The translations under genes and the position numbers were made by a program. Below the pieces are notes generated by a model, which saw nothing but the letters and a program-made list of their open reading frames with translations, was not told the DNA's origin and made no database searches. 64,000 nucleotides of DNA from Myxococcota bacterium (GTDB lineage: Bacteria > Myxococcota_A > UBA796 > UBA2385): NCBI GenBank assembly GCA_044344255.1, contig JBIJDH010000001.1, forward strand, positions 543,604-607,603, in the 5' to 3' direction. Every line of letters begins with the position of its first letter. Position 1 is the first letter of the stretch. This document shows positions 44,852-64,000 of the stretch, piece by piece.

Positions 44852-46339
44852 TCAGAGGCCCCAGGCGGCGAGGGTCTGCTCGATGCGCCGGTCGAGGGCC
44901 TGGGCGGCGGCCTGCTGGGCGCGCAGCTCGGCGGCGAGGGCGCCGGCCCGCTCGAGGAAGGGGGCGCCCTCCGCCTCTGGGGCCTCTGCCCCGACATAGC
45001 GGCCCGGGTTGAGCCCAAAGTCATTCGCCGCCACCTCCGCCCGCGAGGCCGACCGACAGAAGCCGGGGAGGTCAACATAAGCCGGGGCGGCCCCCTCCTC
45101 CACCTCGGCCGGTCGCCGCCGCCAGGCCCGATAGACCTGCGCGACCCGCTCCACGTCGACCGGATCGAGCACCCGGCTCGCGCGCCCCTCCAGCCGGCCG
45201 AGGCCGCGGGCGTCGATGAAGAGCAGCTCGCCCCGCCGATCGCGGTCCAGGGCGGCGGCCTTGTCCCGGTGGAGGATCCAGACACAGGCGGGGATCGGGG
45301 TGTTCGTGAAGAGCAGGTCGGGCAGCGCGACCATGCAGTCGACGAGGTCGGCCTCCACGAGGCTCCGCCGGAGCTCGGCCTCGCCGCCCGTGCGGCCGGT
45401 CATCGAGCCGTTGGCGAGGATCACCGCCGCCTGTCCCCCGGGGCCGAGGTGGTGCGCGATGTGCTGGAGCCAGGCAAAATTGGCGTTTCCAACAGGCGGC
45501 GGCCCGAAGGCCCAGCGAGGGTCTCCGCGTAGCCGCGCCCCACCCCAGTCCGAGACGTTGAAGGGGGGGTTGGCGAGCACGAAGTCGGCCTGCAGGCCCG
45601 GGTGGAGGTCCACCGATAGGGTGTCCTTCGCCGCCGCGCCGAGCGAGGCCGAGATCCCGCGGAGCGCGAGGTTGACCCGGGCCATCCGCCAGGTCGTCTC
45701 GTTCGACTCCTGGCCAAAGACCTGCACGTCCCCCGCCCGCCTGCCGTGGGCCACTTGGAAGCGGACCGACTGAACGAACATGCCGCCGGTTCCGCAGCAG
45801 GGGTCATAGACCACGCCGGACAGAGGCTCGATCAGCGCGACCAGGAGGCGGACGAGCCCGCCCGGGGTGTAATACTCCCCTCCCCTGCCCTCGGCGGTGG
45901 CGAATTTCGAGAGCAGGTACTCGTAGATCCGCCCCGCGGCGTCGGCCTCACCCCCCGGGCCGCCCACGCCCAACGCCAGCGCCCCGTCGAGGCCGCGGAC
46001 GAGGTCGGCCAGCCTGCCCTCGTCGATGCCAGAGGCGACGAACACCGGACGTAAACACCCGTGTAACGTTACGTTACGCGACTCGATCGCCAAGAGCGCC
46101 GCGTCGAGGGCCCCGGCCAGCCCGGGCCCCTCCGCCAACGCCCGCAGCCGGGGCCAGCGCGCCTCCTCGGGCACCTCCAGCGGGCAGCCCGGGGCGGCGC
46201 AGGCCTGGAGGAAGAAGAGCCCCAGCACGAGGTGCTTGTAAGCGCTCGGCTCGAGCTGGCCGCGGAGGGTGTCGGCCGCGCGCCAGAGCCGCTCCTCGAG
46301 GCCGAGGGCGGCGGCAGGCGCGGGGCGCGGGCGGGGCAT
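44852..46339 (-). CDS. hsdM: Type I R-M N6-adenine methyltransferase
   Basis: LW-AAD-LRG, GEYYTP, YDPCCGTGG, GQESN, NPPF. Confidence 0.92.
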   Translation of the reverse strand: MPRPRPAPAAALGLEERLWRAADTLRGQLEPSAYKHLVLGLFFLQACAAPGCPLEVPEEARWPRLRALAEGPGLAGALDAALLAIESRNVTLHGCLRPVFVASGIDEGRLADLVRGLDGALALGVGGPGGEADAAGRIYEYLLSKFATAEGRGGEYYTPGGLVRLLVALIEPLSGVVYDPCCGTGGMFVQSVRFQVAHGRRAGDVQVFGQESNETTWRMARVNLALRGISASLGAAAKDTLSVDLHPGLQADFVLANPPFNVSDWGGARLRGDPRWAFGPPPVGNANFAWLQHIAHHLGPGGQAAVILANGSMTGRTGGEAELRRSLVEADLVDCMVALPDLLFTNTPIPACVWILHRDKAAALDRDRRGELLFIDARGLGRLEGRASRVLDPVDVERVAQVYRAWRRRPAEVEEGAAPAYVDLPGFCRSASRAEVAANDFGLNPGRYVGAEAPEAEGAPFLERAGALAAELRAQQAAAQALDRRIEQTLAAWGL

Positions 46340-46382
46340 CCGGCCTCTCGAAGCGGGGGGCGCTCCGCCTAATCGGTCCCCG

Positions 46383-46793
46383 TCAGCGCGCCCGCATCCG
46401 GTTGTCCTTGGCGTTGTGCTCCACCTCCGCGAGGCCGAGCAGCTCGAGCACCGGCGGGACGTAAGAGGCGAAGCGGCCGCGGAGGCCCTTCTTCACGCCG
46501 TACCAGCCGCCCACGGGGTTCGACTCCGAGCGGCCCCAGGCCTCCACCGTGCCCTCGGCGGCCGGCTTCTGCTCATCGGCGTTGCCGAGCGGCACCCAGT
46601 CGCCCTGGGCGACGAGCATGGCGTGGAGGTCCTCGATGCAGCGCAGGTGGTAGCGGAGCTGCGTGCTCTTGACCTGCACCACGAGCGCGGGCGGGCTCAG
46701 GCTGGGGTCACGCCAGGCCTCGAATTCCGAGGTGCCGGGGGGCGTCTTGAGGATCCAGGGGCGCTCGGGGGTGCCATCACCTTGGGCAGACAT
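46383..46793 (-). CDS. Conserved hypothetical protein (DUF6855-like, recalled and unverified)
   Basis: Globular composition with Trp/Gly motifs (PW-LKTPPG, NPVGGWYG-KKG-RGRF). Confidence 0.6.
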   Translation of the reverse strand: MSAQGDGTPERPWILKTPPGTSEFEAWRDPSLSPPALVVQVKSTQLRYHLRCIEDLHAMLVAQGDWVPLGNADEQKPAAEGTVEAWGRSESNPVGGWYGVKKGLRGRFASYVPPVLELLGLAEVEHNAKDNRMRAR

Positions 46794-46927
46794 GCGGGGC
46801 TCCAGCGGAGAGGGGGCGCTCACGGGCCGCGAGCGTGCTGCTCCTCTACGGTGCGGCGCGGCCCGCCGGTACGGCTCCCCGCGATGGCACAGTGATGCGG
46901 ATTGGATACCAATCGCCGGGAGGCCGC

Positions 46928-47830
46928 ATGCGCCACGACCTGAACGACGTCGCGGTCTTCACTGAGGTGGTGCGCCTCAAGGGCTTCACCGCGGCCGGCC
47001 GCGCGCTCGGCCTCCCCGGCTCGGCGGTGAGCCGGCGGGTGGCGCGCCTCGAGGAGGCCCTCGGCTTCACGCTGCTCCTCCGCACCACCCGCAGCGTCGG
47101 CCTCACCGAGGCCGGCCGCCGCTTCTATGAGCACACCGCCCAGATCGCGGGCCTGCTCGACGAGGCCGTGCGCGCCGCGGCGGGCACCCGCGACACCCCC
47201 TCGGGCCGCCTCCGCGTCACGGCGCCGCCGGACGACGGCGGGGTCATCTGGTCGCTGCTCTCGGGCTTCCTCCGCCTCCACCCCGAGGTCGACCTCGAGC
47301 TCACCCACACCCTCGAGCGGGTCGACCTCGTCGCCGCCGAGATCGACCTCGCCCTGCGCGGGGGCCCCGCGCCCGACTCGATGGAGTTCAGCGCCCAGAA
47401 GATCTACACCTCGCGCATCCTCCTCGCCGCCAGCCCCGCCTACCTCGCGCGCCGCGGCACCCCCGAGCAGGCCGAAGACCTCGCCGCTCACGACGGCATC
47501 TGCATGGACCCCTGGGCCCCGAACGCGATCCGCCGCGTCCAGGGCGACGGGGGCTATGTGCGCGTCAACATGCGGAGCCGGGTGCGCGCCAACAGCCTCG
47601 AGACGGCCCGCCGCGCCGCCGTCGACGGCCTCGGCGTCGCCCCCCTCCTCGAGCTCACCTGCCGGGGAGAGCTTGACCGGGGCGAGCTCGTGGAGGTCCT
47701 CCGCGGCGCCTTGCCCGACACCGCGCCCTTCTGGGCCCTCACCCCCCTCGCCCGCACCCGCTCGGCCGCGACGACGGCCCTGCTGGCCTACCTCGCCGAG
47801 CTGCCGCTCAGGCCGGACCGGGGAGGCTGA
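46928..47830 (+). CDS. LysR family transcriptional regulator
   Basis: N-terminal HTH FTAAGRALG...VSRRVARLE...RTTR-LTEAG. Confidence 0.92.
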   Translation: MRHDLNDVAVFTEVVRLKGFTAAGRALGLPGSAVSRRVARLEEALGFTLLLRTTRSVGLTEAGRRFYEHTAQIAGLLDEAVRAAAGTRDTPSGRLRVTAPPDDGGVIWSLLSGFLRLHPEVDLELTHTLERVDLVAAEIDLALRGGPAPDSMEFSAQKIYTSRILLAASPAYLARRGTPEQAEDLAAHDGICMDPWAPNAIRRVQGDGGYVRVNMRSRVRANSLETARRAAVDGLGVAPLLELTCRGELDRGELVEVLRGALPDTAPFWALTPLARTRSAATTALLAYLAELPLRPDRGG

Positions 47831-48021
47831 TCATCCACTGCACGCCGAAGCGGTCCAGGCACATCCCGAAGTAGGGCCCCCAGGGCGCGTTGGCGAGCGG
47901 CATGTGGACCTGCCCGCCCTCGCCCGAGAGCAGCGCGAAGGCGCGGTCGGCCTCGGCCTTGTCGCCGGCGACGAGCGAGATGGGTGCCGGGGAAGTTGAG
48001 GTAGATGTGGACCTGCTGCAT
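47808..48021 (-). pseudogene. PhnB/VOC family remnant with internal deletion
   Basis: N-terminal MQQVHIYLNFPGT joins out of frame to the C-terminal GGQVHMPL...WG-YFG-C-DRFGVQWM. Confidence 0.7.
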
Positions 48022-48142
48022 GTCTTCACGCTCCGGGGGTGACCGGCGCCCCGGGTCTCGGGAGGCCGCCGGGTGCTTTTCTACGGTGGGTCCGATCGGG
48101 GATGGGCGCCCGCGCTCCCGGCGCGGAGCCGGAGCGGCCCCC

Positions 48143-51029
48143 TCACCCCGCCGCCTTCGCCCGCAGCCTCTCCCACAGCCTGAAGTGGTTGAGCAGCATG
48201 TCCTTGATGCCGCGCCGCACCGCCTCGGAGTTGAGCGCCTGGGTGCTCATCAGCGTGTGGGCGTCGAGCGCGTCGATGATCGCGTTCATCAGCTCGGTGT
48301 CGAGGTCGGGAGAGCCGGCGAACTGCTCGGCGCTGTTGTTGCTCGCCTGCTGCGCCAGCAGGGCGGACTCCAGCACCTTGCCGAAGATCACCTGCCCGAC
48401 GAAGATGAGCTGGTCATCGTCGGTGAGCTTCCCGCTGAAGAGCTGGTTCAGCCGCTCGATGATCTCCCGCAAGGCCGCCCTCTCCCGCTCCTGCACGCTG
48501 CCGCTGCCGGCCTCGCTGGGCGGGTCGAGCTTCGGGGCCGCCCCCTCGCCGAGCACCATCGGCGCGGCCCCCTGCCCCTTCAAGTTGTAGTGAGTGAGCC
48601 TCACCTTCGAGAGGTCGATGCCCTCCCGCTCGCGCCCGAATTCCAGCAGCGGGAGCAGCCGCTTGTAGAAGATCCAGCGCTTCTCGATGGTCGAGCTCAA
48701 CGGCGACGACCCGCTCCACCTCGAAGTCGTGGTAATGGCCGGAAGCGTCGAGCTTGGCGCGCAGGTTGAAGACGAGGTGCGGGTCGGTGGTGGCGGAGAG
48801 CTCGGCCGTGCTGTGGTAGGCCTGGAAGGCGGCGAGCACCTCGGCCGGGTCATTGACGAAGTCCACGACGTAGGTGGTGTCCTTGCCGGGGTGCGCGCGG
48901 TTGAGCCGGGAGAGCGTCTGCACCGCCTGGATGCCCGCCAGCCGTTTGTCCACGTACATGCCACAGAGCAGGGGCTGGTCGAAGCCGGTCTGGAACTTGT
49001 TGGCCGCGAGCAGGAGCTGATACTCGCCGCCCTTGAAGGCCTCGCGGATGTCCCGGCCCTTGAGGTTCGGGTTCAGCGACCGGCTGTGCTCGGTGAAGGG
49101 ATCGGGCCCCGACTCCGGGTCGATGACCTCGCCGGAGAAGGCCACGAGCGTCCCGATCGTGTAGCCGCGCTCCCGGATTTAACGGTCCACGGCGAGCTGC
49201 CAGCGCACCGCCTCGAGCCGGCTGCTGACCACCACCATCGCCTTGGCCTGGCGGCTCAGCAGCGGCGCCACGTGGGCGCGGAAGTGCTCGACGACCACCG
49301 CCACCTTCTGGGCGATGTTGTAGGGGTGGAGCTTCACCCACCCGAGGAGCTTCTTGAGCGCGGCGCTCTTCTCCACCTCGGTGTCATCGAGCTCCTGGCC
49401 GTCGTGCGCCAGCTTGTAGGCGAGGCTGTAGGGCGTGTAGTTCTTGAGCACGTCGAGGATGAAGCCCTCCTCGATGGCCTGCCGCATCGAGTAGACGTGA
49501 AAGGGCGCGGGGAGGTTGTCGTCGGCCGGCTTACGCGTGGGGTCGGGGCGGGTGCCGAAGAGCTCCAGGGTCTTGTGCTTGGGCGTGGCGGTGAAAGCCA
49601 CGAAGGTGATCCCCACATCGGCGGCGCGGCTCCTCATCTGGGCGGCGAGCACGTCCTCGGCGCTCACCTCCCCGCCATCGCCGAGCTCGGCGAGCTCGGC
49701 GGCCGTCAGCACCGCCTTCAGCTTGCTGGCGGCCTCGCCGGTCTGCGAGCTGTGCGCCTCGTCGGCGATCACCGCGAAGCGCTTGCCCTGCGCCGCGGCC
49801 AGCTTGCGCACGGCCTCCAAGGCGAAAGGGAAGGTCTGGATCGTGCAGACGATGATCTTCTTGCTGCCGTCGAGCGCGGCGGCCAGCTCGGCGCTCTTGC
49901 TGCCGCCCTCGCCCCGGATCTGCTCGACCACACCCGCGGCGCGCGCGAATCCCTCGAGGGCCTCCTGGAGCTGCGCGTCGATGACGTTGCGGTCAGAGAC
50001 GACCAGCACGGTGTCGAACACCTTCTGGGGCTCGCCGCCCTGCGACGCCGATCGGTGCAGCTCCGCCAGGAAGTGGGCCGTCCAGGCGATCGAGTTGGTC
50101 TTCCCCGAGCCCGCCGAGTGCTGGATGAGGTACTTCGCGCCCGGGCCCTCCGCGAGCACCGCCGCCTGGAGCTTTCGTGTCACGTCGAGCTGATGGAAGC
50201 GGGGGAAGATGATCCGGGCGATCTGCTTCTTGTGGTCACGCTGGGTGACGAGGTAGCGGCCGAGGATCTCGAGCCAGCCCTCGCGCGCCCACACCTGCTC
50301 CCACAGATAGGCGGTGCGGTGCCCTGCGGGGTTGACGGGGTTGCCCGCCGCGCCGTTGTCCCCCTGGTTGAAGGGCAGGAACACGGTGGCCGGCCCGTCG
50401 AGCCGGGTCACCATGTGCACCTCGCGGCTGCTCACGGCGAAGTGCACGAGCGCGCCGCGGGGGAAGGAGAGCAGCGGCTCGGGGGAGTGGCCCTTCGGGT
50501 GCGGGAGCCGGTCGAAGCGGTACTGGTCTATCGCCGCCGTGATGCTCTGGGTGAACTCGGTCTTCAGCTCGACGGTGGCGACTGGGATCCCGTTCAGGAA
50601 CAGCACGAGGTCGATGCTGTTCTCGTTGTGGGTGGAGTAGCGCACCTGCCGGATGACCCGGAGGCGGTTCAGGTTGTAGCGGCCGACGAGCTCGGCGTTG
50701 AAGTCCATCGCCGGCTTGAACTGGGCGAGGCAGAGCGGCTGCTTCAGGCCCAGCAGCTCGACACCGCGGCGCAGCACGTCGAGGGTGCCGCGCTGGTCGA
50801 GCTGATCGCGGAGGCGGTTGAGGAGGGTCTCGGCGGCGCGGGCGCCGTGGTTCTTGGTGAGGGCCTCCCAGGCCTTCGGCTGGGCGCCGTGGACCCAAGC
50901 GAGCACGTCAGCGGGGAAGAGGGCGCGGGCCCGGTCGTAAGCGGCGGCGTCACCCTCGGCGTAGAGCCAGCCGTTCTGGGCGAGGTGGGCGCAGATCTCT
51001 TCTTCGAAGTTGATCTCTCTGTGAATCAT
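48143..51029 (-). pseudogene. hsdR: Type I R-M restriction subunit, inactivated
   Basis: ELK, HSAGSGKT, DEAH, FTATP and TGFD motifs. In-frame TAA at 49179-49181 and a frame change near 48690. Confidence 0.9.
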
Positions 51030-51118
51030 GCGCTCCTCCGCGCAGCGGAGGCGGGCGTTTCGCCGCCGTGAGAACAGATCTTCAACGAGGGGGATGGGGC
51101 GAAACGAGCACCCATCTC

Positions 51119-51344
51119 CACCGCAGAGGACGCAGACGACAGCGGGGAGAAACGACGGGCCCCGTCGAGGCCGGCCGAATCAGGACTCGAGCGCGCCGCG
51201 AGCAAAAGAACCGACCAAAGATCCTCCTCCCGCGCATCGCGGGGGGAGGTGGCGCCGCATCGGCGCCGGAGGGGGGCCGGCGGGCGACCTCGCAATACCG
51301 AACCACTCCCCCTCTCCACCGCTCTCTCCGCGTCCTCTGCGGTG
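51119..51344. repeat. Perfect 15-bp inverted repeats flanking ~196 bp
   Basis: caccgcagaggacgc (51119-51133) and gcgtcctctgcggtg (51330-51344). Confidence 0.7.
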
Positions 51345-51354
51345 AACGCTCTCC

Positions 51355-51667
51355 TCATGCCCGCACCCCCCGGACGTCCATCTGCCCCGTGACGGCGGCA
51401 GAGATCAGCGCGGTGCGCCGCTCCTGGAGGAGGTCGATGGCGCGCTGGGCTTCGGCAGTGAGGGCGTCGAGCTTGGCAGTCCTCCATGCGTCACCACTGG
51501 ATAGCTTCCTTCAGTACGCTCGGCGTCGGTGAGATCGTGTCCACGCTGGAGGGTCGAAAAGCGCTTGATTACCTTGACCGCCCAATGTGCCGGCACCTCC
51601 CCCAGCCACTCCACCCCGCTGTCCTTGTACTTCTGTCCTTGTACTTCGGATACCGCGGCAGGCTCAT
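51355..51667 (-). pseudogene. hsdS: Second hsdS remnant with most of the TRDs deleted
   Basis: MSLPRYPKYKD/SGVEWLGEVP-HW start and [15 protein letters not shown] end; 14-bp tandem duplication at 51619-51646. Confidence 0.85.
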
Positions 51668-52206
51668 GGCTTCTTCCCTTCGATGCGCTGAAAATCCCAG
51701 TTGAAGTCCGACGTTCGACCATACCATGCGTCCTTCCAAGTCCCGAGCACGGTCGGGTATGAGGCAGTCCTCTCCAAAATGGAAACGACTGTCCCAACCA
51801 AGAGGATCAAGGCGCAAGTGAGGTTCACCGGGTGCCTCTTCCCGGAGCGGGCGTGCTCCGCGACGAGCCGGTGCGGTCGGCCACGCCGCAGCAGCCCGAT
51901 GGTCGGCTTGTCATGATTGGCCTTCACCTGGGCGTCGACCGCCGCGATGTCGCAGTGGAGCAGCGGTCTGGAGATCGCCCGCCTCCCTTCGGTTCGAACT
52001 TGTAAGTCCTCCTTACAGGTTGCCTCCGCCTGTCGCTCGCCCTCCGCGTAGCGGGCGCGGAGGTGCTGCGTGATGTTCTGGAGCGTGGTCTGATTGAGTG
52101 TGGCCATCTGCGCCTGGGTGAGCCAGACGCGCTCTTCCTCGAAGCGACACTCCACCCGGGCCAGGCCGTCGGGCGTTTGATAGAGGATGACCTCCGAGCC
52201 GCTCAT
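51664..52206 (-). pseudogene. Chimeric remnant: RhuM-like N-terminus fused to a YhcG/DUF1016-like C-terminal fragment
   Basis: ILYQTPDG...VWLTQAQMA...NITQHL...EATCK...VRTEG, then AVDAQVK..HDKPTIGLL. Confidence 0.6.
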
Positions 52207-53429: not shown

Positions 53430-54034
53430 AGTTGGTCCTGCCTTGGGTCCTCGGTACGGTCGCCGTGCTGTTCGGGCTCCTGACCCTCTACGCCGGCGGC
53501 TCAGTGCTGCTCAACATCGGCTCCGCGCGGGCGGACCACGGCGAGTACGTGCCGTTCGTGCTGTGGTTCAACGTCCTCGCCGGATTCGCGTATGTCGGCG
53601 CGGGGATCGGCCTTGCGCTCCGCCGCCGCTGGGCGGGCCTCGTCGCGGTCGTGATCGCGTCGGGCACCGCGATCACGAGCCTCGCCCTCGGCGGGCACAT
53701 CCTGTCGGGCGGAGCGTTCGAGCGGGAGACCGTCATGGCGATGGGGGTGCGCTTCGTCTTCTGGACCGGCATCTCGACCTTCGCGTTTCTTTCCCACCGC
53801 CGAGGCTCCACAAGCGGAGCCCAACGAGGACCGAGAGGAGGAGCAGGCCGACAGGCAGGGAGACCGCCACCATGTCGAAGCCAGCGAACTCCGCCGCCGC
53901 CACCGCGACGGAGACCGCCACGACCATCCAGCCAAGGATGGTGCTCGCGCGTCGGGACCGTGCGCCGCTCCCCTGTTGCACGCGGGCGGCCAGCCACCCG
54001 TCCAACCCGTCGGAGCACAACATCCCGAGGGTGA
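53426..54034 (+). CDS. Small 4-TM membrane protein, apparently lacking its native stop
   Basis: Hydrophobic for ~120 aa (YVPFVLWFN-LAGFAY), then reads antisense through the NiCoT gene. Confidence 0.6.
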   Translation: MKLVLPWVLGTVAVLFGLLTLYAGGSVLLNIGSARADHGEYVPFVLWFNVLAGFAYVGAGIGLALRRRWAGLVAVVIASGTAITSLALGGHILSGGAFERETVMAMGVRFVFWTGISTFAFLSHRRGSTSGAQRGPRGGAGRQAGRPPPCRSQRTPPPPPRRRPPRPSSQGWCSRVGTVRRSPVARGRPATRPTRRSTTSRG

Positions 54035-54449
54035 ACGAGAGGCCCAGGTAGAGCGCCGGCACCTGCGCGATCAGCGAAAGCGCGGCGAGCTGGCTCGACG
54101 TCTCGAACCCGACCGCGAGCAGCACGCCGAGTAGCAGCGGGCCGTACCGAAGGGGGAGGGTGGGCAGCGCGTGGGCGTGGGGACGGAGGAGCCGCCAGGC
54201 GTTCGCCCCGGCGATCAATAGGAACAACCAGGGCGTTAGGAAGCCGAGGTCGAACTGGCCGGTCACCTGCTGAGCGCCCACCGCCAACACCGTGACGAGC
54301 CCGCCATGGCCCAGCGCGAAGAGCACCCCGTTCCACGCGCTCGGGCGGAGGCGGGAAAGGCCGTCAATCACCGCGAGGTGGTCCGCGTCGAGGCCGTGCC
54401 GGAGGCCGAGCGCCCACACCAAGCCCAGGTTCACGAGCATTCTGGGCAC
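53733..54449 (-). CDS. HoxN/HupN/NixA (NiCoT) family metal transporter
   Basis: GLRHGLDADHLAVID signature and GFETSSQ. Start may be 54440. Confidence 0.85.
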   Translation of the reverse strand: MPRMLVNLGLVWALGLRHGLDADHLAVIDGLSRLRPSAWNGVLFALGHGGLVTVLAVGAQQVTGQFDLGFLTPWLFLLIAGANAWRLLRPHAHALPTLPLRYGPLLLGVLLAVGFETSSQLAALSLIAQVPALYLGLSFTLGMLCSDGLDGWLAARVQQGSGARSRRASTILGWMVVAVSVAVAAAEFAGFDMVAVSLPVGLLLLSVLVGLRLWSLGGGKETRRSRCRSRRRSAPPSP

Positions 54450-54499
54450 CGGGGAGCGGAGAGAGGCATGCTCCGGCGACTAGCGCGCCTGCGACACTA

Positions 54500-54516
54500 A
54501 TGCAACTTAGATGCAT
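54500..54516. promoter_or_regulatory. Palindromic operator ATGCAAC-TTA-GATGCAT (candidate Fur-family box)
   Basis: AT-rich near-perfect palindrome upstream of the NiCoT gene; related sites at 55000-55014 and 55032-55040. Confidence 0.55.
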
Positions 54517-54974
54517 CAGCAATTTTCGGCAGACCCGTGGCAGCGGTCGCAGACGCCGCGGAACTGGATCGCGACCTTTCCTGAGCTCATGGCGATCGGA
54601 AGTTGCCCTTCCGGGAAGGGTAGGCTGATCGGTGGCAGGCAGGCGAGGTCACCGCAGGTCGTGCACAGGAAATGAGGGTGGTCGACCTCCGTGTGAGCCG
54701 CCCCGGCTGGCGCAGACTGTAGTTCAAACCGCCAGAGATGGTCGCCAAGATCGATCCGGCGAAGGAGGCCCGCCTCCGTCAGATCGACGAGGTTTCGGTA
54801 GAGCGTCGCCCGGTCCCAGCCATCAGCAGCCAACGCGGCGTACACCTCGGGGTGGCTGGACGGGGCGGCGTGACCGTGGAGGACGCGCAGCACCGCGACG
54901 CGCGCCGAGGTGGCCCGTAGGCCCGCCGCTCGTAGAGCGTCTCGGATGTCGGCGTCAGAGGGGTCGGTGCCCAT
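54516..54974 (-). CDS. Fur family regulator (Zur-like)
   Basis: GLRAT-AR, ATLYRNL, HPHFLCTTC and C-terminal CDRC. Confidence 0.9.
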   Translation of the reverse strand: MGTDPSDADIRDALRAAGLRATSARVAVLRVLHGHAAPSSHPEVYAALAADGWDRATLYRNLVDLTEAGLLRRIDLGDHLWRFELQSAPAGAAHTEVDHPHFLCTTCGDLACLPPISLPFPEGQLPIAMSSGKVAIQFRGVCDRCHGSAENC

Positions 54975-55066
54975 GAGGGGTGCTCCAGTGGGTTGCTTTC
55001 GCATCATAGTTGTAATATCATACGCAGGCGCAGTTGCATCAACCCCCTTCACGTAGCTGGTTCCCC

Positions 55067-56278
55067 ATGGATCGCCTCCCCGTCACCGTCCTCTCCGGCT
55101 TCCTCGGCGCCGGCAAGACCACGCTCCTCAACCACGTCCTCGCCAACCGCGAGGGTCGACGCGTGGCCGTCATCGTCAACGACATGAGTGAGGTCAACAT
55201 CGACGCCGCGCTCGTAAAGGGCGAGGCGCACCTCGATCGCACCGACGAGAAGCTCGTCGAGATGCAGAACGGCTGCATCTGCTGCACCTTGCGCGAGGAT
55301 CTCCTCATCGAGGTGCGACGCCTCGCCGCCGAGGGGCGGTTCGACTACCTCCTCATCGAGTCCACGGGCATCTCCGAGCCGCTCCCGGTGGCCGAGACCT
55401 TCAGCTTCGTCGACGAGAACGGTGTGTCCCTCGGCGATGTGGCCCGCCTCGACACGATGGTCACGGTCGTGGACGCCCTGAACTTCATGGAGGACTGGCA
55501 GAGCCTCGACGAGGTGCGCGAGCGCGGACAAGCTCTGAGCCCCGAGGACGACCGCAACGTCGTGCGCCTGCTCGTGGAGCAGGTCGAGTTCGCTGATGTG
55601 CTCGTGATCAACAAGGCCGATCTCGTCTCGACCGAGGGTCTCGCGTCGCTCCAGGCGGTGCTGGCCCGCCTCAACCCCCGCGCGCACCAGGTCGTCGGCA
55701 CGCGCGGCGAGGTTCCCCTCGGGGAGATCCTCGACACCGGGCGCTTTGACCTCGACGAGGCCAAGGCGGCACCCGGCTGGATGGCCGTCGCGCGGGGCGA
55801 GGCCCGTAGCGAGGCCGACGAGTACGGGATGAGCTCGTTCGTGTTCCGGGAGCGCCGCCCGTTCCACCCCGATCGGTTCGCCACCTTCATGCGGGAGAAG
55901 AAGGAGGGGGTCGTGCGCTCCAAAGGGTTCTTCTGGCTCGCGAGCCGACCGGAGTGGACGGGCGTGTGGGCGCAGGCGGGGCGGATCACCGAGCTCGGGC
56001 CCGGCGGGATCTGGTGGGCGGCCGTGGATAAGTCCCAATGGCCCGAGGATCCCGAGGAGCGCGCGGAGATCAAGTCCGGCTGGGTGAAGCCCTGGGGGGA
56101 TCGCCGCCAGGAGCTGGTGTTCATCGGGCGCAACATGGATCGGGCGGCCATCGAGGCAGGGCTGAAGACGGCCTTGCTCACCGACGCCGAGGTCGCCCTG
56201 GGGATGCGGAAGTGGCGGAAGTTCACCGATCCCTTCGACGCCTGGGAGATGGGTGAGCCTGAGGCCGACGATGCTTGA
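55067..56278 (+). CDS. COG0523 G3E GTPase metallochaperone (ZigA/YciC-like)
   Basis: [36 protein letters not shown]. Confidence 0.95.
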
Positions 56279-57428
56279 GTGGCTCATCGTGGGTGGCGGC
56301 ATCCACGGGACGCACCTCGCCCATGTCCTGCTGGCGGGCCGCGGCGTCGCGCGCGATCGCCTCGCCGTCCTCGATCCGCATCCTACGCCCCTGCATCGCT
56401 GGCGCGAATGCACCCGCGCCGTCGGCATGCGCTACCTCCGCTCTCCTTCCGTCCACCACATCGGCCTGGACCCCTTCGATCTCGTGGAGTTCGCGCGCGC
56501 GTGGCCGAGAGGCAGGCCGTTCACTCCGCCCTACGATCGCCCCGCGCTGGCGATGTTCGACGCGCACTGCGACACGCTGATCGCCCGCGAAGGGCTCGAC
56601 GCGGTGCGGATCCGCGGGGTCGCGCAGGCGATTTCCGCCGTCCAGGGTGGGTACCGCGTGCAGACCCCTGCGGGCGAGATCGTGACGAGGCGGATCGTCC
56701 TCGCCCTCGGCCTCGGGGAGCAGCCGCTCTGGCCGGGTTGGGCGCTCACCGCGCAGGCGTTCGGGGCCCGGGTGGACCATGTGTTCGAGCCTGGGTTCTC
56801 TCCCGATCAGGTGAGCGACGGGCCCGTGCTCGTCGTCGGCGGCGGGATCAGCGGTGGCCAGCTCGCCGCCTCGCTGGCCACGGCGGGGCGCGAGGTGCGG
56901 CTCTGGATGCGCCACGGGCTCCGCGTGCACCAGTTCGACAGTGACCCTGGGTGGATCGGACCCCGGTACATGGCGGGCTTCGCGAGAGAGGAGAGCGTGC
57001 CGAAGCGCCGCGAGATGATCGCCGCGGCGCGCCACCGTGGGTCCATGCCCCTCGATGTCGCCGATGACCTCGGCACGCACATCAAGGCGGGCCGCGTGAC
57101 GCTGATCGGCGGCGACTTCGAGGCGGCCGACGCGGTCGCGAAGGGCGGGCTCGTCCTGCGCACCTCGACCGGCTCCTGGGGGGCCGCGCACACGGTGCTC
57201 TGCACCGGATTCGCCCCGACCCGGCCCGGCGGCGCGCTCGTAGACGGGCTTGTCGCTGACCTCGGTCTCCGATGTGCGGGCTGCGGTTACCCCATCGCGG
57301 ACGCGACGCTCCAGTGGCGGCCGGGGCTGTTCGTCATGGGGCCGCTGGCCGAGCTGGAGCTGGGGCCAACGGCCCGGAACATCACAGGGGCGCGCGCGGG
57401 CGCGGAGCGGATCGCCCGGGCCGCGTAG
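56271..57428 (+). CDS. FAD/NAD(P)-binding oxidoreductase
   Basis: Two Rossmann motifs GGGIHG and GGGISG; LRSP-VHH; LCTGF; ELGP-ARNI-GAR. Confidence 0.85.
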
Positions 57429-57466
57429 GCCGCCTCCTCACCATTCACCAGGTTGAACAGATGTAC

Positions 57467-57937
57467 ATGAAGCTCTCACACATGATGCTGGCGGCGACGC
57501 TTGGGGGCGGCTGTGTGGCTGCCGAACCCCGGGATGCTGGGCCGGAGGATGACGACGAACACGACCACGACACGGCCTCGGACCCAGTCGACTGGGACGA
57601 TGCACGGACGCTCCTGACGGACGGGGGGACCTTTCAGGTGAGCGTCGTCATCGAGCCGGACCCCGCGGCCGTGGGCCAGCCGACCGATCTCGACATCCTC
57701 GCCATCTACGCGGATGACCCGGAGGCTCATCTCCACGACGTGACGCTCGAAACGAGCTTCGAACACTCAGAATCGGGTGCCGTGCGTGATGATGTGCCCG
57801 TTCGCGACCGGGGGCACGGTGAGTACCGCGTCCGCGACTGGATCTTCGACGTCACGGGCGTCTGGCGACTTGACTTTTGCTTCACCGACGCTGTCGACGA
57901 GGAGTCCGTGTCGTTCGAGCTGTACGTTCAGCCATGA
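57467..57937 (+). CDS. His/Asp-rich lipoprotein with YtkA/FixH-like Ig domain
   Basis: Lipobox-like GGC, DDDEHDHD tract, GEY...F...GVWRL pattern. Confidence 0.65.
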   Translation: MKLSHMMLAATLGGGCVAAEPRDAGPEDDDEHDHDTASDPVDWDDARTLLTDGGTFQVSVVIEPDPAAVGQPTDLDILAIYADDPEAHLHDVTLETSFEHSESGAVRDDVPVRDRGHGEYRVRDWIFDVTGVWRLDFCFTDAVDEESVSFELYVQP

Positions 57938-58992
57938 CGGGGCGCTCTTGGCGGATGGCCGTAGCGTTGTCTCTCTGGGTCACGACGGGTGGTCCTGCGA
58001 CGGCGGTATCTCCTCCGCCAGATTCAGCGCGGGCAGCGGCGCTCTACCAACGCTACTGTGCCTTGTGTCACGGCGGCGACCGGGAGGGGCACGCCGCCGA
58101 CCACGCGCCCTCCCTACGCTCGCCGGAGCTCCTGGGCACGGCATCACCGACGTACCTGTGGAGTGCCGTCGCCTGGGGCCGCCCGGGAACGGCCATGGCG
58201 GCGTTCTCCGACCAGCAGGGTGGGCCTCTTGGGCATGACGACATGCACATCCTCCTCGACTGGCTGGTCGCCGAAGCGGGCGTGGAGCGGCGTGCCCTGC
58301 CGGACACGGCGGTGAACGGGGATGCGGCCCTGGGCGCCGCACTCTACGCCCGCGAATGCGAGAGGTGCCATGGGGCCCAGGGAGAGGGGACTCTCGGTCC
58401 CGCGTTGGGCAACCCGGTCTTCCTGGCTACCGCCTCCGACGCGTTCCTGCGCGACAGCATCGCCCGGGGGCGAACCGGCACACCGATGGCAGCGTTCGGA
58501 GACCGTCTGACGACTGGGGAGTTGGACGCCTTGACGGCGTTCTTGCGGAGCCGGGCTGTGGGATGGGCCGCACCGGTGCCTGTACGTGTGACCCCTCCGC
58601 CGCCGACCGCTGCGGTCCTCAACAAGGGCGGCGCACCCGCGGAGCTCACCCCTCGCGAGGGGCGCTTCGTCGGCGTCGATCAGGTCCGGAGGGCGCTGGC
58701 CGAGGGCCGCCGCATCGTCCTGCTCGACGCGCGTCCCCTCTCGGACTGGCAGCGCGGCCACATTCCCGGCGCTCTCCCCGTACCGTTCTATGACGGCGTG
58801 GGCGCGATCACGCCGCACCTGCCTCGCGATGACACTTGGATCGTCGCCTATTGCGCCTGCCCGCACGCGGCGTCGGGTCGGATCGTCGACGAACTGCGTG
58901 TCCAGGGCTTCGAGCGTGCCGTGGTGCTCGACGAGGGCGTCCTGATCTGGGCCTCGCGCGGGTACCCCATCGCAATCGGAGGCGACCCCTGA
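57934..58992 (+). CDS. Di-heme cytochrome c fused to a rhodanese domain
   Basis: CALCH and CERCH each followed by GRxGTxMAAF; LDAR, GHIPGA, YCACPH. Confidence 0.88.
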   Translation: MTGRSWRMAVALSLWVTTGGPATAVSPPPDSARAAALYQRYCALCHGGDREGHAADHAPSLRSPELLGTASPTYLWSAVAWGRPGTAMAAFSDQQGGPLGHDDMHILLDWLVAEAGVERRALPDTAVNGDAALGAALYARECERCHGAQGEGTLGPALGNPVFLATASDAFLRDSIARGRTGTPMAAFGDRLTTGELDALTAFLRSRAVGWAAPVPVRVTPPPPTAAVLNKGGAPAELTPREGRFVGVDQVRRALAEGRRIVLLDARPLSDWQRGHIPGALPVPFYDGVGAITPHLPRDDTWIVAYCACPHAASGRIVDELRVQGFERAVVLDEGVLIWASRGYPIAIGGDP

Positions 58993-59717
58993 TGACATCG
59001 AAGGATCGTACAATGTTCAGCTTGCAATCGTTTTTCCCGTGGCACCCCCGCGGTGTCCCTTTCGTCGATACCGCTCCAACGCGTCGTTACCGCCCTGCGC
59101 TCGTGTCCGAGCGACAGGAGGTGCTGGAAGCGCTCGCGGGCGCCGACGCCGACATCGCGGTCTGGCGGCGGCCCGTCCCCGAGGGCTCGTCCACTGCGCT
59201 CGCGACCTGGGCATGTTCGAGCCCGCCCCCCTGCGACCGAACCTACCGGGTCCAGAGCTCCGATCTCGCGCCGTGGATCTCCGGCCTGGTCGACGCGGAG
59301 GCCAGAGCATGGCTCGAACGGGACGTCCGCACGCTCGTGGCACGTTTCGCGGGCGCGCTCGACGTGGAGGAGGTTCGGCTGGTGCTCGGCGTTGTGTCCG
59401 ACGACAAGTGCCGGAAATTCCACGTGGACAATCTACGTATGCGCATGGTCTGCACGTACGTCGGCCCCGGAACCGAGTGGGTGGAAGACGCGTGGGTGAG
59501 GCGCGAGGCGCTCACCCATGGCGCCGCTGGCGCGGTGACGAATCGGGGGATCGTCGATGGCCTCGATCACGTGGAGCACGCCAACGCAGGCGACGTTCTG
59601 TGGATCCGCGGGAGGTCCTGGCGGCCGGGGCCCTTCGGTGGCGTCCACCGGTCACCTTCGATCGCAGAGTCTGGGCAGGTCCGACTCGTCCTGGTCGTGA
59701 GCCCGCTGACCCCGTGA
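58992..59717 (+). CDS. DUF1826 family protein
   Basis: C-KFHVD, R-VCTY-GPGTEW and VHRSP motifs. Confidence 0.85.
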   Translation: MTSKDRTMFSLQSFFPWHPRGVPFVDTAPTRRYRPALVSERQEVLEALAGADADIAVWRRPVPEGSSTALATWACSSPPPCDRTYRVQSSDLAPWISGLVDAEARAWLERDVRTLVARFAGALDVEEVRLVLGVVSDDKCRKFHVDNLRMRMVCTYVGPGTEWVEDAWVRREALTHGAAGAVTNRGIVDGLDHVEHANAGDVLWIRGRSWRPGPFGGVHRSPSIAESGQVRLVLVVSPLTP

Positions 59718-59847: not shown

Positions 59848-60074
59848 GTGATGACGGATCGGGGGGGCGATGAGGCCACAGGGGACAGGGGGTGATGACG
59901 GGGCGATGCCATTGCTCGGGAGGGCGATGCCGATGACGGAATTGTGGGCGTGATTCCGTGTCATCATCGACATCGGCAGGGATGGCATCGCGGGTCATCG
60001 GCATCGTCATCGGGCCGTGTCATCGGGGAAGGCATCGTCATCGGCATCATCGGGCTTGACATCGGAACCGATGT
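59848..60074. repeat. Mirror-symmetric GATG/CATC motif array
   Basis: 6 GATG copies (59850-59935), central IR acggaat/attccgt (59936-59959), 13 CATC copies (59962-60063), terminal palindrome acatcgg-aa-ccgatgt. Confidence 0.8.
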
Positions 60075-60084
60075 TAGTAAAGGT
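60056..60084 (+). promoter_or_regulatory. Putative promoter with overlapping palindromic operator
   Basis: TTGACA at 60056-60061 overlapped by ACATCGGAACCGATGT (60059-60074); weak -10. Confidence 0.5.
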
Positions 60085-60107
60085 AACTTGTGCTGACCTG
60101 GAGACTC

Positions 60108-60542
60108 ATGCCTACCCCCGCCTCCTCTCGCCCCATCGTGGACTCTGCAACGCTCTTCGGGCGCTGCATCGCCGTGATCCGGGCGGACCTCGGGCTCACC
60201 CAGGCGCAGATGGCCGCGATGTTGCGCGTGTCGCGCCCCACGCTGACCCACTTCGAGACCGGGCGGGCAACGCCGTCCTTCCACGTCCTGCTTCGTCTCG
60301 GGCAGCGTGTCGCGAAGGCGCGCGTCGACAGCGACGCCACCGCGGTGCTTGCGCTCCTGCACCTGACAGCGAGCGCGCTCCAGGCCGACGGCATCCGCGT
60401 GCTCAACCGGCCGGTCCGCGAGGGCGACGTCATCCTCGACTTCGCCAAGATCGACCGCGTCGTCGGCCGCGTCTTCGACCGCGAGTTCCGCGAGTACGTC
60501 CCCGCCAAGCTCGCCGACTTCTCCGGCGACGACGACGAATAA
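60108..60542 (+). CDS. XRE-family HTH protein
   Basis: IR-DLGLTQAQMA-MLRVSRPTL-HFETG; GGAGA RBS. Confidence 0.85.
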   Translation: MPTPASSRPIVDSATLFGRCIAVIRADLGLTQAQMAAMLRVSRPTLTHFETGRATPSFHVLLRLGQRVAKARVDSDATAVLALLHLTASALQADGIRVLNRPVREGDVILDFAKIDRVVGRVFDREFREYVPAKLADFSGDDDE

Positions 60543-60579: not shown

Positions 60580-60984
60580 ATGGGCAAGTACGCATTCATC
60601 GACAACATCTTCGGACCCGACGAGGAAGAAGAGATCGAGGCGAACGACGCCTTCGACGAGGAGGAGGACGACGAGGAGTCCGGCGAGGAGTCGGACGACG
60701 ATGCCGACGACGACGAGGACGGCGAGGACGACGAGGACGACGACCAGCCCGTGGAGGACGACGCCATGCTCGCCCGTCTCGACAAGGCGTACCGTGCGCT
60801 CCGCGCCCGGGTTCGGGCGGTTTCCGACCTGCCCGAGCTGCGTACGATGCGGTCCGAGCACGCCGCTGCACTCGCCGGGCGTCAGAGCCCGACCCTGCGC
60901 CTGCGCACGCTCGACATCATCGAGGCCATCGACGACCGAGTCACCGATCTGCGCGCCAGCCGCGGCGGTCCCCGGAGCCAGTGA
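60580..60984 (+). CDS. Hypothetical protein with long Asp/Glu tract and helical C-terminus
   Basis: AGGAG RBS; ~45-residue acidic stretch. Confidence 0.75.
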   Translation: MGKYAFIDNIFGPDEEEEIEANDAFDEEEDDEESGEESDDDADDDEDGEDDEDDDQPVEDDAMLARLDKAYRALRARVRAVSDLPELRTMRSEHAAALAGRQSPTLRLRTLDIIEAIDDRVTDLRASRGGPRSQ

Positions 60985-62159
60985 TGTCCTTCACCTTCCG
61001 CGACTTCTCCTCCGATCGCTCGTTCATCGAAGCTACCGAGGACGACCGTGCGATCCTCGACTGGATGCGCGAGTACCGCGAGGATCGTGGTCAGGCTCAG
61101 GCGAGCGGCGACGACGACGCGGTGCAGGAACTCGACGACCTGCTCGAATTTGCCGAGGACCGAATCGTGGAGATCAAGGCGGCGCGGATCGCGGAGGTCG
61201 CGCCCAAGGTGGTACCGGCGCGTGCCGAGCCTGCGCCGGAGACGCGCCGTGTTGCGACCGCGCCAGTGGTCGTCCAGCGTGCGACCACCCAGCGGGTCCG
61301 GGAGGAGAGCAACGGCGCCGAGCGGCCACGCCGCCGCCAGGGGAACGAGGCGGCGGATGTCGCCGCCTCCAATCAGCTCGCGACGGACCAAGCAGCCGCA
61401 GAGCAGGCCGCAGCGGAGCGGAATCGGCGGGATGAAGAGGAGCTACGCGAACTCCGCGAGCGAGCGCGGAAGGCGGAAGCTCGGGTCAAGGCGGCGCAGG
61501 CCGAAACGGCCCGACTCAAGGCCATGCAGCAGCAGGCAGCGGTGGAGCAGGAGCGCGAGCGCCGGCAACGTGCGAAGGAACGCGCCGAGAAGGAGGCGAA
61601 GGCGCAAGAGAAGGCGGCCGCCGAGGCCGAAGCGACGGCGCGAAACGAGGCCGCGCACGTGCTCCCCAAGGTGGCGGCGACGCCTTCGCGCCCGGCCACG
61701 CCGGTCACGCCCGTGGCACCGATCCAGCGCCGCGACATCAGCACGAGCGGCGCTCGCCCCGCCAGCGGCCCCGTGGAGTTGACCCCGATCGCTCGTCGCT
61801 TCCAGGAGAGGCTCGCCGATGTGGTGCCCGACGCCCCTGCCCGGGTGCCCACCGCGCCGAGGGTGGCCGCGAGCGGGGCGCCCACGCCGAAGGGGGCGGT
61901 GAGGGCACCCCAGCCCCCGCCAGCGACTCCGGCTGCTGATTCCGTCGATGACCTCCCCTCGCTCACGGGCGCGGACCTGACCTCGTTCCGGAACTGGCTG
62001 GCCGTGAGCCAGCGCGTCCTCGCGACCAAGCTCGGCGTGGAGCAGAGCACGATCTCGAAGGGCGAGGGCAGGCCCACGATCGTCCTTCCCCCGCAGCTCC
62101 GAAAGGCGCTTCATCAGGCGATGGGCGAGCCCAGGCCAGACGTTGGATGTGCATCGTGA
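60984..62159 (+). CDS. Coiled-coil protein with C-terminal XRE-like HTH
   Basis: E/R/A/Q/K-rich middle, Pro-rich linker, LTGADL-FR-WL-VSQ-LA-KLGVEQSTISK-E. Confidence 0.75.
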   Translation: MSFTFRDFSSDRSFIEATEDDRAILDWMREYREDRGQAQASGDDDAVQELDDLLEFAEDRIVEIKAARIAEVAPKVVPARAEPAPETRRVATAPVVVQRATTQRVREESNGAERPRRRQGNEAADVAASNQLATDQAAAEQAAAERNRRDEEELRELRERARKAEARVKAAQAETARLKAMQQQAAVEQERERRQRAKERAEKEAKAQEKAAAEAEATARNEAAHVLPKVAATPSRPATPVTPVAPIQRRDISTSGARPASGPVELTPIARRFQERLADVVPDAPARVPTAPRVAASGAPTPKGAVRAPQPPPATPAADSVDDLPSLTGADLTSFRNWLAVSQRVLATKLGVEQSTISKGEGRPTIVLPPQLRKALHQAMGEPRPDVGCAS

Positions 62160-62656
62160 AGCTCGCGTCCCAACTCGCCGATCGGCAAGACCGGCTCATC
62201 GCGCGCGTGGTTGGACCCGTCCGCGATGCGGTGCGCGCCGGCCGGTCCATGTTCTGTTGCTTCGACCATCCGAATGGGACCACGCGGCTTGATCTGATGG
62301 GGCCGAACGGGCTGCTCGGCGGAGCCAGCGACGGCTTCCTCTGCGCGCCCGTGCCGACGCTTCGGCTCTGGTCCCCGTCCGCAATGTGCCGCCCGATCGC
62401 CCAGGCCGCTGCGAACAAGGACTTCCCCGCCGGACTCGACGCCATCGCCCGCCGCGCCGCCCCGCTGATCGGCGACGAGCTGCCGCTGCTGCTCGCGATG
62501 CTCGCCGCCATCCAAGAGGAGACGGCCGGGATGCGCTTCCGAACGGCCAACGTCGGCGCCCTCGTCACGAGTTCCGGGCGCCCCACCGCTGCGGCTTGGA
62601 TGTCCGCGTTGTCCCTCGCGGACATTCAAGCGGCGGTCCTCAAAACGGTTGCGTAG
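62147..62656 (+). CDS. Hypothetical protein
   Basis: Fills the gap between the HTH gene and the recombinase, co-oriented with both. Confidence 0.55.
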   Translation: MCIVKLASQLADRQDRLIARVVGPVRDAVRAGRSMFCCFDHPNGTTRLDLMGPNGLLGGASDGFLCAPVPTLRLWSPSAMCRPIAQAAANKDFPAGLDAIARRAAPLIGDELPLLLAMLAAIQEETAGMRFRTANVGALVTSSGRPTAAAWMSALSLADIQAAVLKTVA

Positions 62657-62668
62657 CCACCGAAAACT

Positions 62669-63898
62669 ATGTCAAGTAGAACCGGCACCTCTGGAGCCCC
62701 CATGACCATGATCGGAGCCGCGTATCTGCGGTGCAGCGACCCCCGGCAAGACAAATCGGTCCAGCAGCAAAAAGAAGAAATCGAACGCCGTGCCGCTGCC
62801 GATGGCGTGGTCATTCCTGCGTCGAACTGGTTCGTTGACGAAGGGATCAGCGGGCGCACCGCCAAGAAGCGCGCCGCCTACCAGTCGCTGCTCCGCGCTG
62901 CCGAGGGGCAGCGCGACTCGCGCATCGGTCGGCGCGCGGTGCGCGTTCAGGGCATTGACCGGCTTTACGTCTGGGCTTTCTCGCGGGTCGCCCGCAACAT
63001 GTTCGACTGTCTCAAAGCGTTGGCCACTCTCGACGAGGCCGATATCGACGTGATCTCGCTGACGGAGCCTGACGCCGGGGACAAGTCGTTTCGAAAGTTG
63101 ATCCGGCCGATTCTCGCGTGGCTTGCTGAACGTTACAGCGAGGAGCTCTCCCGCAACGTGGTCCGCGGGATGCGCTCGCAGGCCGAAAAGGGGTTCTGGC
63201 AAAATGGGCACGCGCCCTACGGATACGCGCTCCAGAAGGTCGAGGGCGGCACCAAGCTCGCGGTGACCGACGACACGCGCGCCGACTTCGAGACGGTGCA
63301 GCGGATCTTTGCCGAGTACCTCGTCGGCAAGGACGGCCAGAAGCGGCTCGCCGAGAAGCTGACGCGCGAGGGTGTGCGGCCCCCGAGTCGTGAAGTGGCC
63401 CGCGACCGGTTCGCCGGGACGTGGCGCCCGAAACACGTCCAGAACATCCTCACGAACGTGACGTATTGCGGCCACCTCGTGCAGAAGGGCGACGCGCTCG
63501 CGCGGAACTGCCACGACGCCGCGGTCACCGACGAGGACTTCGCGCGCGTCGCCGCCCTCCGCAAGTTGAAGGACCGCAACAAGGAGGAAGGCGGCAACGG
63601 GAACCACGCCATCCACATGAGCGAACGCGGCGTGCTCACGCCATGGCTGCGCTGCGGCTCCTGCGGAGGGCGGATCGCGATCACTGGCGGCGGCCACACC
63701 GGAAACATCCGCCACTACTACACTTGCGCGACCCGGCAGGAGAACAAGGCCAACTGCTCGGGCCTCTCCGTCCGCGTCGAGAAGCTGGACGCCGCGGTCC
63801 TCGACTACATCCACGACGAGGCCCTCTCGCCAGAGAGCGTCCAGGAGATGATCGACCAGGGCGTCGTGGCGCTCGCCTTGAGCGCTCACCCGAAGTAG
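62669..63898 (+). CDS. Large serine recombinase, probably C-terminally truncated
   Basis: YLRCS catalytic motif, DEGISG, SRVARN, APYGY, IL-N-TY-G, zinc ribbon CGSCG...YYTC...C. Confidence 0.92.
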   Translation: MSSRTGTSGAPMTMIGAAYLRCSDPRQDKSVQQQKEEIERRAAADGVVIPASNWFVDEGISGRTAKKRAAYQSLLRAAEGQRDSRIGRRAVRVQGIDRLYVWAFSRVARNMFDCLKALATLDEADIDVISLTEPDAGDKSFRKLIRPILAWLAERYSEELSRNVVRGMRSQAEKGFWQNGHAPYGYALQKVEGGTKLAVTDDTRADFETVQRIFAEYLVGKDGQKRLAEKLTREGVRPPSREVARDRFAGTWRPKHVQNILTNVTYCGHLVQKGDALARNCHDAAVTDEDFARVAALRKLKDRNKEEGGNGNHAIHMSERGVLTPWLRCGSCGGRIAITGGGHTGNIRHYYTCATRQENKANCSGLSVRVEKLDAAVLDYIHDEALSPESVQEMIDQGVVALALSAHPK

Positions 63899-64000
63899 AC
63901 CACTTGTGCTCACCAGAAGTAGTCCGGCCTGGAGTTCGCCTCCGACCCTTCAAACGGTGGCCGCGGGGGGCGGGGGCCCCGCACGGTGAGGCTTCGGGGA
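63879..64000. mobile_element. Probable IS21-family terminus
   Basis: TG followed by imperfect direct repeats gctcacccgaagtagacc (63884-63901) and gctcaccagaagtagtcc (63908-63925). No transposase within the window. Confidence 0.5.

Follow-up and report, generated by a model that had tools for sequence, protein, structure and literature searches.

The window (the whole stretch of DNA analysed, 64,000 nucleotides) is the final 64 kb of contig C18. It holds an element arranged in the order cargo, array, XRE gene, acidic ORF2, ORF3, ORF4 and large serine recombinase, with the following features.

53733-59717, no strand: cargo adjoining the array in the window copy, comprising NicO, Fur, CobW, oxidoreductase, cytochrome c/rhodanese and DUF1826 (metal homeostasis; Pfam).
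59848-59937, no strand: left arm, with six half-sites of GATG type (YGATGHC) that reverse-complement the unit of the right arm (from copy positions; 2-6 copies in 12 homologous arrays).
59932-59965, no strand: conserved core GATGMC-GGAAT-N10-ATTCC-RT-GKMAT (degenerate-pattern search), which retains the ancestral GGAAT/ATTCC half-sites.
59960-60063, no strand: right arm, 13 CATC copies with the unit G(T/G/A)CATCG (from copy positions; 8-13 copies in 12 arrays).
60056-60061, plus strand: TTGACA, probable -35 element for the operon that runs from the XRE through ORF2, ORF3 and ORF4 to the recombinase (TTGAC is kept in close homologues).
60073-60087, no strand: imperfect palindrome spanning the -10 region, GTTAG-N5-GTAAC.
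60108-60542, plus strand: XRE-family HTH protein, 144 aa (Pfam HTH_31, E 1.6e-11).
60580-60984, plus strand: ORF2, an acidic N-terminus and a helical domain of about 70 aa homologous to the ORF3 N-domain (hhalign 97%, E 6e-11).
60984-62159, plus strand: ORF3, 391 aa, the putative array binder (domain, profile and covariation analyses).
62156-62656, plus strand: ORF4, an alpha/beta protein directly upstream of this recombinase clade, without a match in family and fold searches.
62702-63877, plus strand: large serine recombinase, cut at 63877 (Pfam Resolvase, Recombinase and Zn ribbon).
63878-64000, no strand: terminal part of an IS-like sequence, present in multiple copies, which interrupts the recombinase and the contig (near-identical ends on C30, C48, C70 and C63).

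The GATG copies of the array were located at 59850, 59869, 59894, 59905, 59926 and 59932, and the 13 CATC copies ran from 59962 to 60060 with a lone GATG exception at 59981, exactly as an earlier note on this DNA had listed them. That note had also described mirror arms around a central acggaat/attccgt repeat. The arms were confirmed, but the arm polarity flips at 59958-59959 (GATTCC-GT-GTCATC), off the midpoint of the repeat. The right-arm spacings were most often 6, 3, 12 and 13 bp. Across 59848-60084, the GATG/CATC count was 21 and the polarity score 17, compared with a mean count of 8.6 (maximum 16) and a mean polarity of 3.6 (maximum 12) in 2000 dinucleotide shuffles. The proposed strand asymmetry thus held against shuffled sequence, none of the 2000 shuffles matching the array in count or polarity. 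When the whole genome (8.18 Mb) was scanned, the array was the top convergent YGATG/CATCR locus, with 19 copies against 9 for the runner-up. An unbiased genome scan for polarised 5-mer arrays also recovered the locus, together with a second, diverged copy on contig C57 of the same genome (82% over 307 nt). Given this copy and the presence of the core with its two arms at 11 further loci, the array is not an assembly artefact, a concern that the earlier note had raised.

Among the 15 distinct close loci with sufficient upstream DNA, both arms and the core were present in 12, only the right part in two, and neither in one; similar arrays therefore do lie upstream of homologous operons. The left copies (2-6), the right copies (8-13) and the core-to-promoter distance (92-234 nt) varied across arrays, whereas the core was constant. 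When the 154 genomes of the order were searched with a degenerate core pattern, 39 matches in 21 genomes were obtained, compared with 2 when the pattern was reversed as a control; the exact core was found in 2 of 401 genomes across the phylum. An ORF3-type HTH was carried by 11 of the 14 genomes with a core at 0-1 mismatch, compared with 40 of the 154 genomes overall. The core was present without any XRE at two loci (L358, L366), and at two others (L360, L364) it lay between convergent gene 3' ends, a position in which no promoter is needed. In the clade of the window (helix EQS), two ancestral GGAAT/ATTCC half-sites persist in the core and the GDCATC arms are expanded, and the arrays of L038 and L367 mix GGAAT and GDCATC units. 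At L021 and L520, ORF3 was present and the array was absent from the available sequence. In viral contigs, the core patterns had chance-like matches only; a distant XRE hit was seen once.

The units of 5-7 nt were spaced 3-34 nt apart, so that CRISPR-type constant repeats with evenly sized spacers were not found, and the Rfam search of the window gave zero matches; the absence of CRISPR-like spacers reported earlier was upheld. A long RNA or single-stranded DNA hairpin had also been suggested. Compared with dinucleotide shuffles, the fold z was about -4.3 to -4.4 for DNA and -2.4 for RNA, and 3 of the 12 arrays remained at z -2.5 or lower with the motifs fixed. However, the window z of -4.4 fell to -0.5 when the motifs were held in place, 5 of the 12 homologous arrays folded no better than shuffles, and the arms are unequal in length and copy number, besides being without an Rfam match. 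Since motif-preserving shuffles account for the fold energy, the hairpin was rejected as the explanation of the array, for which it has a negligible probability. It is a by-product of the motifs.

The last array copy overlaps the TTGACA. A sigma-70 consensus scan of the region gave 0 promoter sites, and the -35/-10 assignment therefore rests on the conservation of TTGAC in homologues. The palindrome ACATCGG-AA-CCGATGT, which had been read as the promoter operator, is present at 60059-60074 over the TTGACA at 60056, but the role does not follow, because the ACATCGG palindrome was found in 3 of 23 promoters whereas the -10 palindrome was found in 18 of 19 close XRE promoters (and 1 of 4 distant ones). 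The consensus of the latter is GTT(A/G)(G/C)-N5-(C/A/G)(T/C)AAC, or in short GTTAG-N5-CTAAC. From this conservation, the palindrome at 60073-60087 is probably the operator of the XRE. The XRE was also considered as the array binder and was rejected: near-identical XRE helices pair with a GDCATC array, with a GGAAT-type core (L190) or with none (L006/L021), and cores were also found where the XRE is missing. XRE copies of 98% identity occur in other families of the order, one of them without the array. At two further loci (L195, L196), a 72% identical XRE accompanies polarised GATG/CATC copies arranged around another centre, and ORF3 is not on the available contigs.

ORF3 consists of a three-helix N-domain (60984-61211), a coiled-coil/low-complexity middle and a C-terminal XRE-like HTH (61950-62138) with the helix VEQSTISK. 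Thirteen of 16 homologous aligned domains of the C-terminal HTH matched HTH_31, and its profile matched HipB/XRE structures. The N-domain was predicted as all-helical with three helices (pLDDT 86), and fold and family searches with it gave no match at E 0.001. The coiled coil had a weak Pfam match below the cut-off, and the full-length model was of low confidence.

The relation between the ORF3 helix and the neighbouring repeat was then compared across 85 unique ORF3-type HTH rows. Of these, 27 were dropped (15 with the helix unparsed, 5 with a short flank and 7 without an upstream core) and 58 were labelled, including 8 with no cluster within 230 nt. The recognition-helix class predicted the neighbouring repeat class in 50 of the 50 classifiable rows, although this does not amount to 50 independent tests and its permutation significance is overstated, because the helix and motif classes were set post hoc and the loci are related. 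The pairs were QGT with GGAAT, HGT/PST with GGAAG, GHGM with GTAGC, and QS(T/V/S) with GDCATC, and the class counts were QG/GGAAT 23, HG/GGAAG 7, PS/GGAAG 9, GHGM/GTAGC 3 and QS/GDCATC 8. A tree of 22 rows, from which the helix residues had been left out, placed QG/GGAAT at two separate positions and GHGM/GTAGC next to an HG/GGAAG row as its sister; QS/GDCATC nested beside QG/GGAAT rows, and there were about four concordant switches of helix and motif. One locus (L366) was discordant, with a QG helix and a GDCATC array 5 kb upstream; it stands outside the 50-row count because the core pattern missed its array. From the covariation, we regard direct binding of the array by ORF3 as very probable. 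The earlier claim that the array is a polarised multi-site platform bound by one of the HTH proteins encoded downstream is thereby supported, with ORF3 (60984) as the likely binder and not the XRE (60108). A repeat can thus be assigned to a specific unannotated protein through natural covariation, with a putative four-class HTH-DNA code in which an apparent single G-to-S change accompanies the shift from GGAAT to GDCATC.

The domain shared by the ORF2 C-terminus and the ORF3 N-terminus is rare, with 42 representatives in 1.84 billion, and the two domains are fused in some relatives. The predicted complex of the two scored 0.68, with 0.14 for the best control; its contacts agreed at at least 93%, the partner pLDDT was at least 83, and the mark used for the complex score was reached by 116 of 157 solved pairs and 2 of 215 mismatched pairs. 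The model supports a pairing of the ORF2 C-terminal domain with the ORF3 N-domain, with the proviso that the score may mirror a homodimer surface of paralogous domains. PHROGs gave no match for ORF2-4, and the Atlas structure search no usable match. The best fold-search hit of ORF4 (Z 5.2) was uninformative, and its role as a directionality factor is a guess.

The XRE-to-recombinase module recurs in the order; a genome from a different family shares it at up to 87.7% identity across 3,990 bp. To the left of the array, every homologous locus has different DNA, with RM, helicase/defence, efflux, arsenic or metal genes, the cargo of relatives often being RM/defence (MmeI-type, HsdM). Further left in the window, 43607-52206 holds pieces of a Type I restriction-modification system (HsdM, HsdS, a frameshifted HsdR and further fragments), and a tRNA-Leu called by ARAGORN at 43617-43695, where two protein-coding genes end and the sequence is GC-rich, overlaps both gene ends and is probably spurious. 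The attR site lies at the recombinase 3' end, and in four relatives the distance from the XRE to attL on its upstream side was 3.3, 7.7, 6.3/7.8 and 10.8 kb, which gave att-bounded elements of about 7.5-15 kb. Their ORF calls show no replication or transfer gene, with no relaxase or mating-pair genes apparent; a partition ATPase and a terminase were likewise not identified. Complete elements of 7.5-15 kb in which no replication gene was called retain the array together with ORF2 and ORF3. In the window copy, a 9-bp direct repeat flanks the IS-like break on both sides, contig C2 (126-575) carries attR and the rest of the recombinase, and attL was not found in the genome. A search of public contigs for excision or circle junctions of L019 gave no clean joint; one candidate near both ends had only 21 letters on a side and was set aside. 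The recombinase and the att-bounded relatives place the array inside an integrative element, as had been thought. It is not at the edge, as had also been proposed: since attL and attR lie elsewhere, the array marks the boundary between core and cargo and is not an att site.

We also considered that the array serves recombination: ORF3 on the array might enhance the recombinase or help to set its directionality, or the array centre might itself be a crossover site for cargo capture. The array operon is co-transcribed with the recombinase in the window, the centre is a palindrome with 2-bp spacing, and the array sits at the cargo boundary, where homology to relatives stops at variable points in the left arm. 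Nevertheless, the true att sites differ in sequence and lie elsewhere, and ORF2-ORF3 with a cluster also occur in tyrosine-integrase elements (L181, L183). Cargo does not switch at the array centre either, because both sides of the centre are conserved. Such a recombination role is improbable.

An origin of replication had been implied by the iteron-like reading of the array, and we considered an orphan origin of SaPI/P4 type that a helper element would fire in trans through its primase-helicase. The architecture matches that of SaPI origins in the part of the literature consulted (PMC9371898), where short penta- or hexamers are opposed around a centre, here with 6 on the left and 13 on the right. 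The other intergenic polarised arrays of the same genome sit right behind VapE or DUF927 helicase genes and are SaPI-like (G000 C9 17430-17700, C10 5050-5400, C35 11900-12250). Among the 48 VapE/DUF927 loci listed, a polarised array was found at the 3' end of 23, each with its own motif, and inside the gene in 0. A replication-less copy, L190, has an additional origin-like GGCAGACC/GGTCTGCC array at the same position, upstream of the XRE (about 6500-6950), and no matching helicase was found for it; L446 was tried as its counterpart and rejected, as the matches were scattered. The array resembles iterons in layout. However, no cognate helicase was found: the GDCATC motif occurred in 0 of 48 VapE/DUF927 and 0 of 34 DUF3987/DUF5906 loci, that is, in 0 of the 82 helicase loci listed. 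The VapE-bearing relatives carry their own GTCCA-type origin before ORF2 and a separate core 77-95 nt behind ORF3. In addition, the SaPI/PICI origin, as characterised in the excerpted text (PMC9371898), lies directly downstream of the rep gene, whereas the DNA upstream of the array is variable cargo. The centre of such origins is AT-rich; the array centre is short, 22 nt with 10 A/T in a genome of 70% GC. That the array motif follows the ORF3 helix further weakens the origin reading, which is unlikely, by a degree similar to that of the recombination role.

We propose that the array is most likely a multi-site landing pad for the element's own DNA-binding protein. Each C-terminal XRE-like HTH of ORF3 would read one GDCATC/GGAAT half-site; the HTHs would be carried on long coiled-coil/flexible arms and bundled via the N-terminal helical domain, which would also pair with the homologous domain of the acidic ORF2. 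If the half-sites, about 20 in all, were loaded to the left and right of the ATTCC-RT-GKMAT junction, a large nucleoprotein complex might form. This complex could act as a handle on the element, similar to a centromere or a KfrA operator, that stabilises or positions the excised circle or presents it to a helper's transfer or packaging machinery. In the window copy, it would also cover the operon -35 and damp the operon promoter. The first cluster site lay -25 to +42 nt from the ORF3 stop in 34 of 40 clusters, a layout that may be likened to a centromere or an origin behind the gene of its own protein. The chance that the array is a handle at all is about even; stabilisation is a possible but doubtful form of it, and mobilisation a less probable one. 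A replication-less circle gains little obvious benefit from segregation, and the next gene, co-directional at 27 of 31 clusters, equally fits regulation.

The regulatory alternative is purely transcriptional: ORF3 on the array would only repress or time the element operon, in XRE-type copies, or defence and RM cargo genes whose reading direction is away from the cluster, as at the multi-site operator of a controller protein. In addition to the co-directional next genes, the overlap of the last array copy with TTGACA, the frequent RM/defence cargo (MmeI-type, HsdM), and the nearest cargo gene reading away from the array at 9 of 16 XRE-type loci are consistent with this explanation. On the other hand, that gene reads towards the array at the other 7 of 16, the distance to the next gene spans -18 to 941 nt, and arrays lie between convergent 3' ends (L360, L364). 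A separate conserved palindrome is already present over the -10 region, and 20 sites over 210 bp read by a coiled-coil protein with a partner are more than an operator usually needs. Purely transcriptional control is less probable than the handle role as a whole and about as probable as stabilisation.

The landing-pad reading was compared with known systems. In the part of the account consulted (PMC7783346), five repeats of 9 nt that overlie the KfrA promoter are bound by KfrA itself, and this binding is required for the plasmid to be maintained. The KfrA/KfrC system with operator OK of IncU/IncP plasmids may be alike in its alpha-helical coiled-coil DNA-binder, in its repetitive operator overlapping the promoter and in its alpha-helical partner. 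The differences, as far as the same excerpt describes them (PMC7783346), are that KfrA has its HTH in an N-terminal head whereas the HTH of ORF3 is C-terminal and XRE-like, and that KfrA belongs to a conjugative plasmid beside ParAB/parS whereas the elements here are att-bounded and chromosomal with none of these among the ORFs called. Moreover, the sites here are polarised half-sites, mostly behind the ORF3 3' end (34 of 40 clusters start at the ORF3 stop), and a promoter overlap like that of KfrA (PMC7783346) occurs in the window, where the last array copy lies on TTGACA. No sequence similarity between ORF3 and KfrA was found in Pfam, Atlas or PHROGs. The pSK1 Par/RacA-type factors, as presented in the section of the source consulted (PMC11500499), likewise have one protein with an HTH and a coiled coil, repeated centromere-like sites and no ATPase; here the binding is suggested by covariation. 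pSK1 Par has an N-terminal winged HTH of MerR type, a central coiled coil and a disordered C-terminus, whereas ORF3 has the reverse order and an XRE-like HTH, and adds the acidic partner ORF2 and an integrated chromosomal element (PMC11500499). The array-ORF3 pair would accordingly resemble KfrA and pSK1 Par in layout and differ from them in domain order and replicon type.

The XRE-ORF2-ORF3-recombinase islands cross family boundaries without visible transfer genes, and the array is the best candidate for their missing cis element. The array is kept in replication-less, family-crossing islands within an order rich in virus-like elements, and we therefore speculated that ORF2, ORF3 and the array might constitute an undescribed mobilisation adaptor. 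This would be a self-encoded, specificity-switching DNA tag through which virus-like elements resident in the same cell could capture 7-15 kb islands and satellite-like relatives with their packaging or transfer machinery, the four helix/motif classes serving as exclusivity groups; we consider it unlikely, though less so than an origin. iOriT genomic islands, in the portion of their description consulted (10.64898/2026.01.13.699239), are small integrative elements with a recombinase, defence cargo and no transfer genes that presumably hitch on a helper; the islands here may be similar, none of their called ORFs being an apparent transfer gene. Unlike them, the element here encodes its own candidate binder for the cis site, and no conjugative helper was identified for it. 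No description of the element family or of the helix-motif series was found in the open-access literature. Together, the loci delineate a family of small islands with defence and metal cargo in an order that has been little studied and probably belongs to the Myxococcota.

A marker gene of the virus-like element occurs in 49 of the 154 genomes of the order. Integrated elements with a recombinase, a primase and a DUF927 or DUF5906 helicase were observed at L360 (5775-18001) and L370 and at L350/L371, where about ten conserved genes after the helicase had no Pfam or PHROG match, possibly marking an undescribed virus-like element. The array was tried as a fixed part of the element at L360 and rejected, as it follows the 162-aa gene of that element in 1 of 30 loci.

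The recombinase clade resembles the multi-targeting large serine recombinases of the text consulted (PMC10083194) in that one clade uses many host genes. It differs in that the targets here share a motif: 7 of the 12 distinct attR sites lie in a gene ending D(M/I/V)G(A/G)(Y/F/L)GGP. Insertion into the DxG(A/G)(Y/F/L)GGP C-terminal motif of varied genes was observed at L213 (517-560), L019, L020, L022, L025, L029 and L038, and tandem insertions into earlier att sites occur. The records of L019, L020, L024 and L025 are labelled Bifidobacterium or Klebsiella; they are GC-rich contigs whose genes match this lineage, and the labels look wrong.
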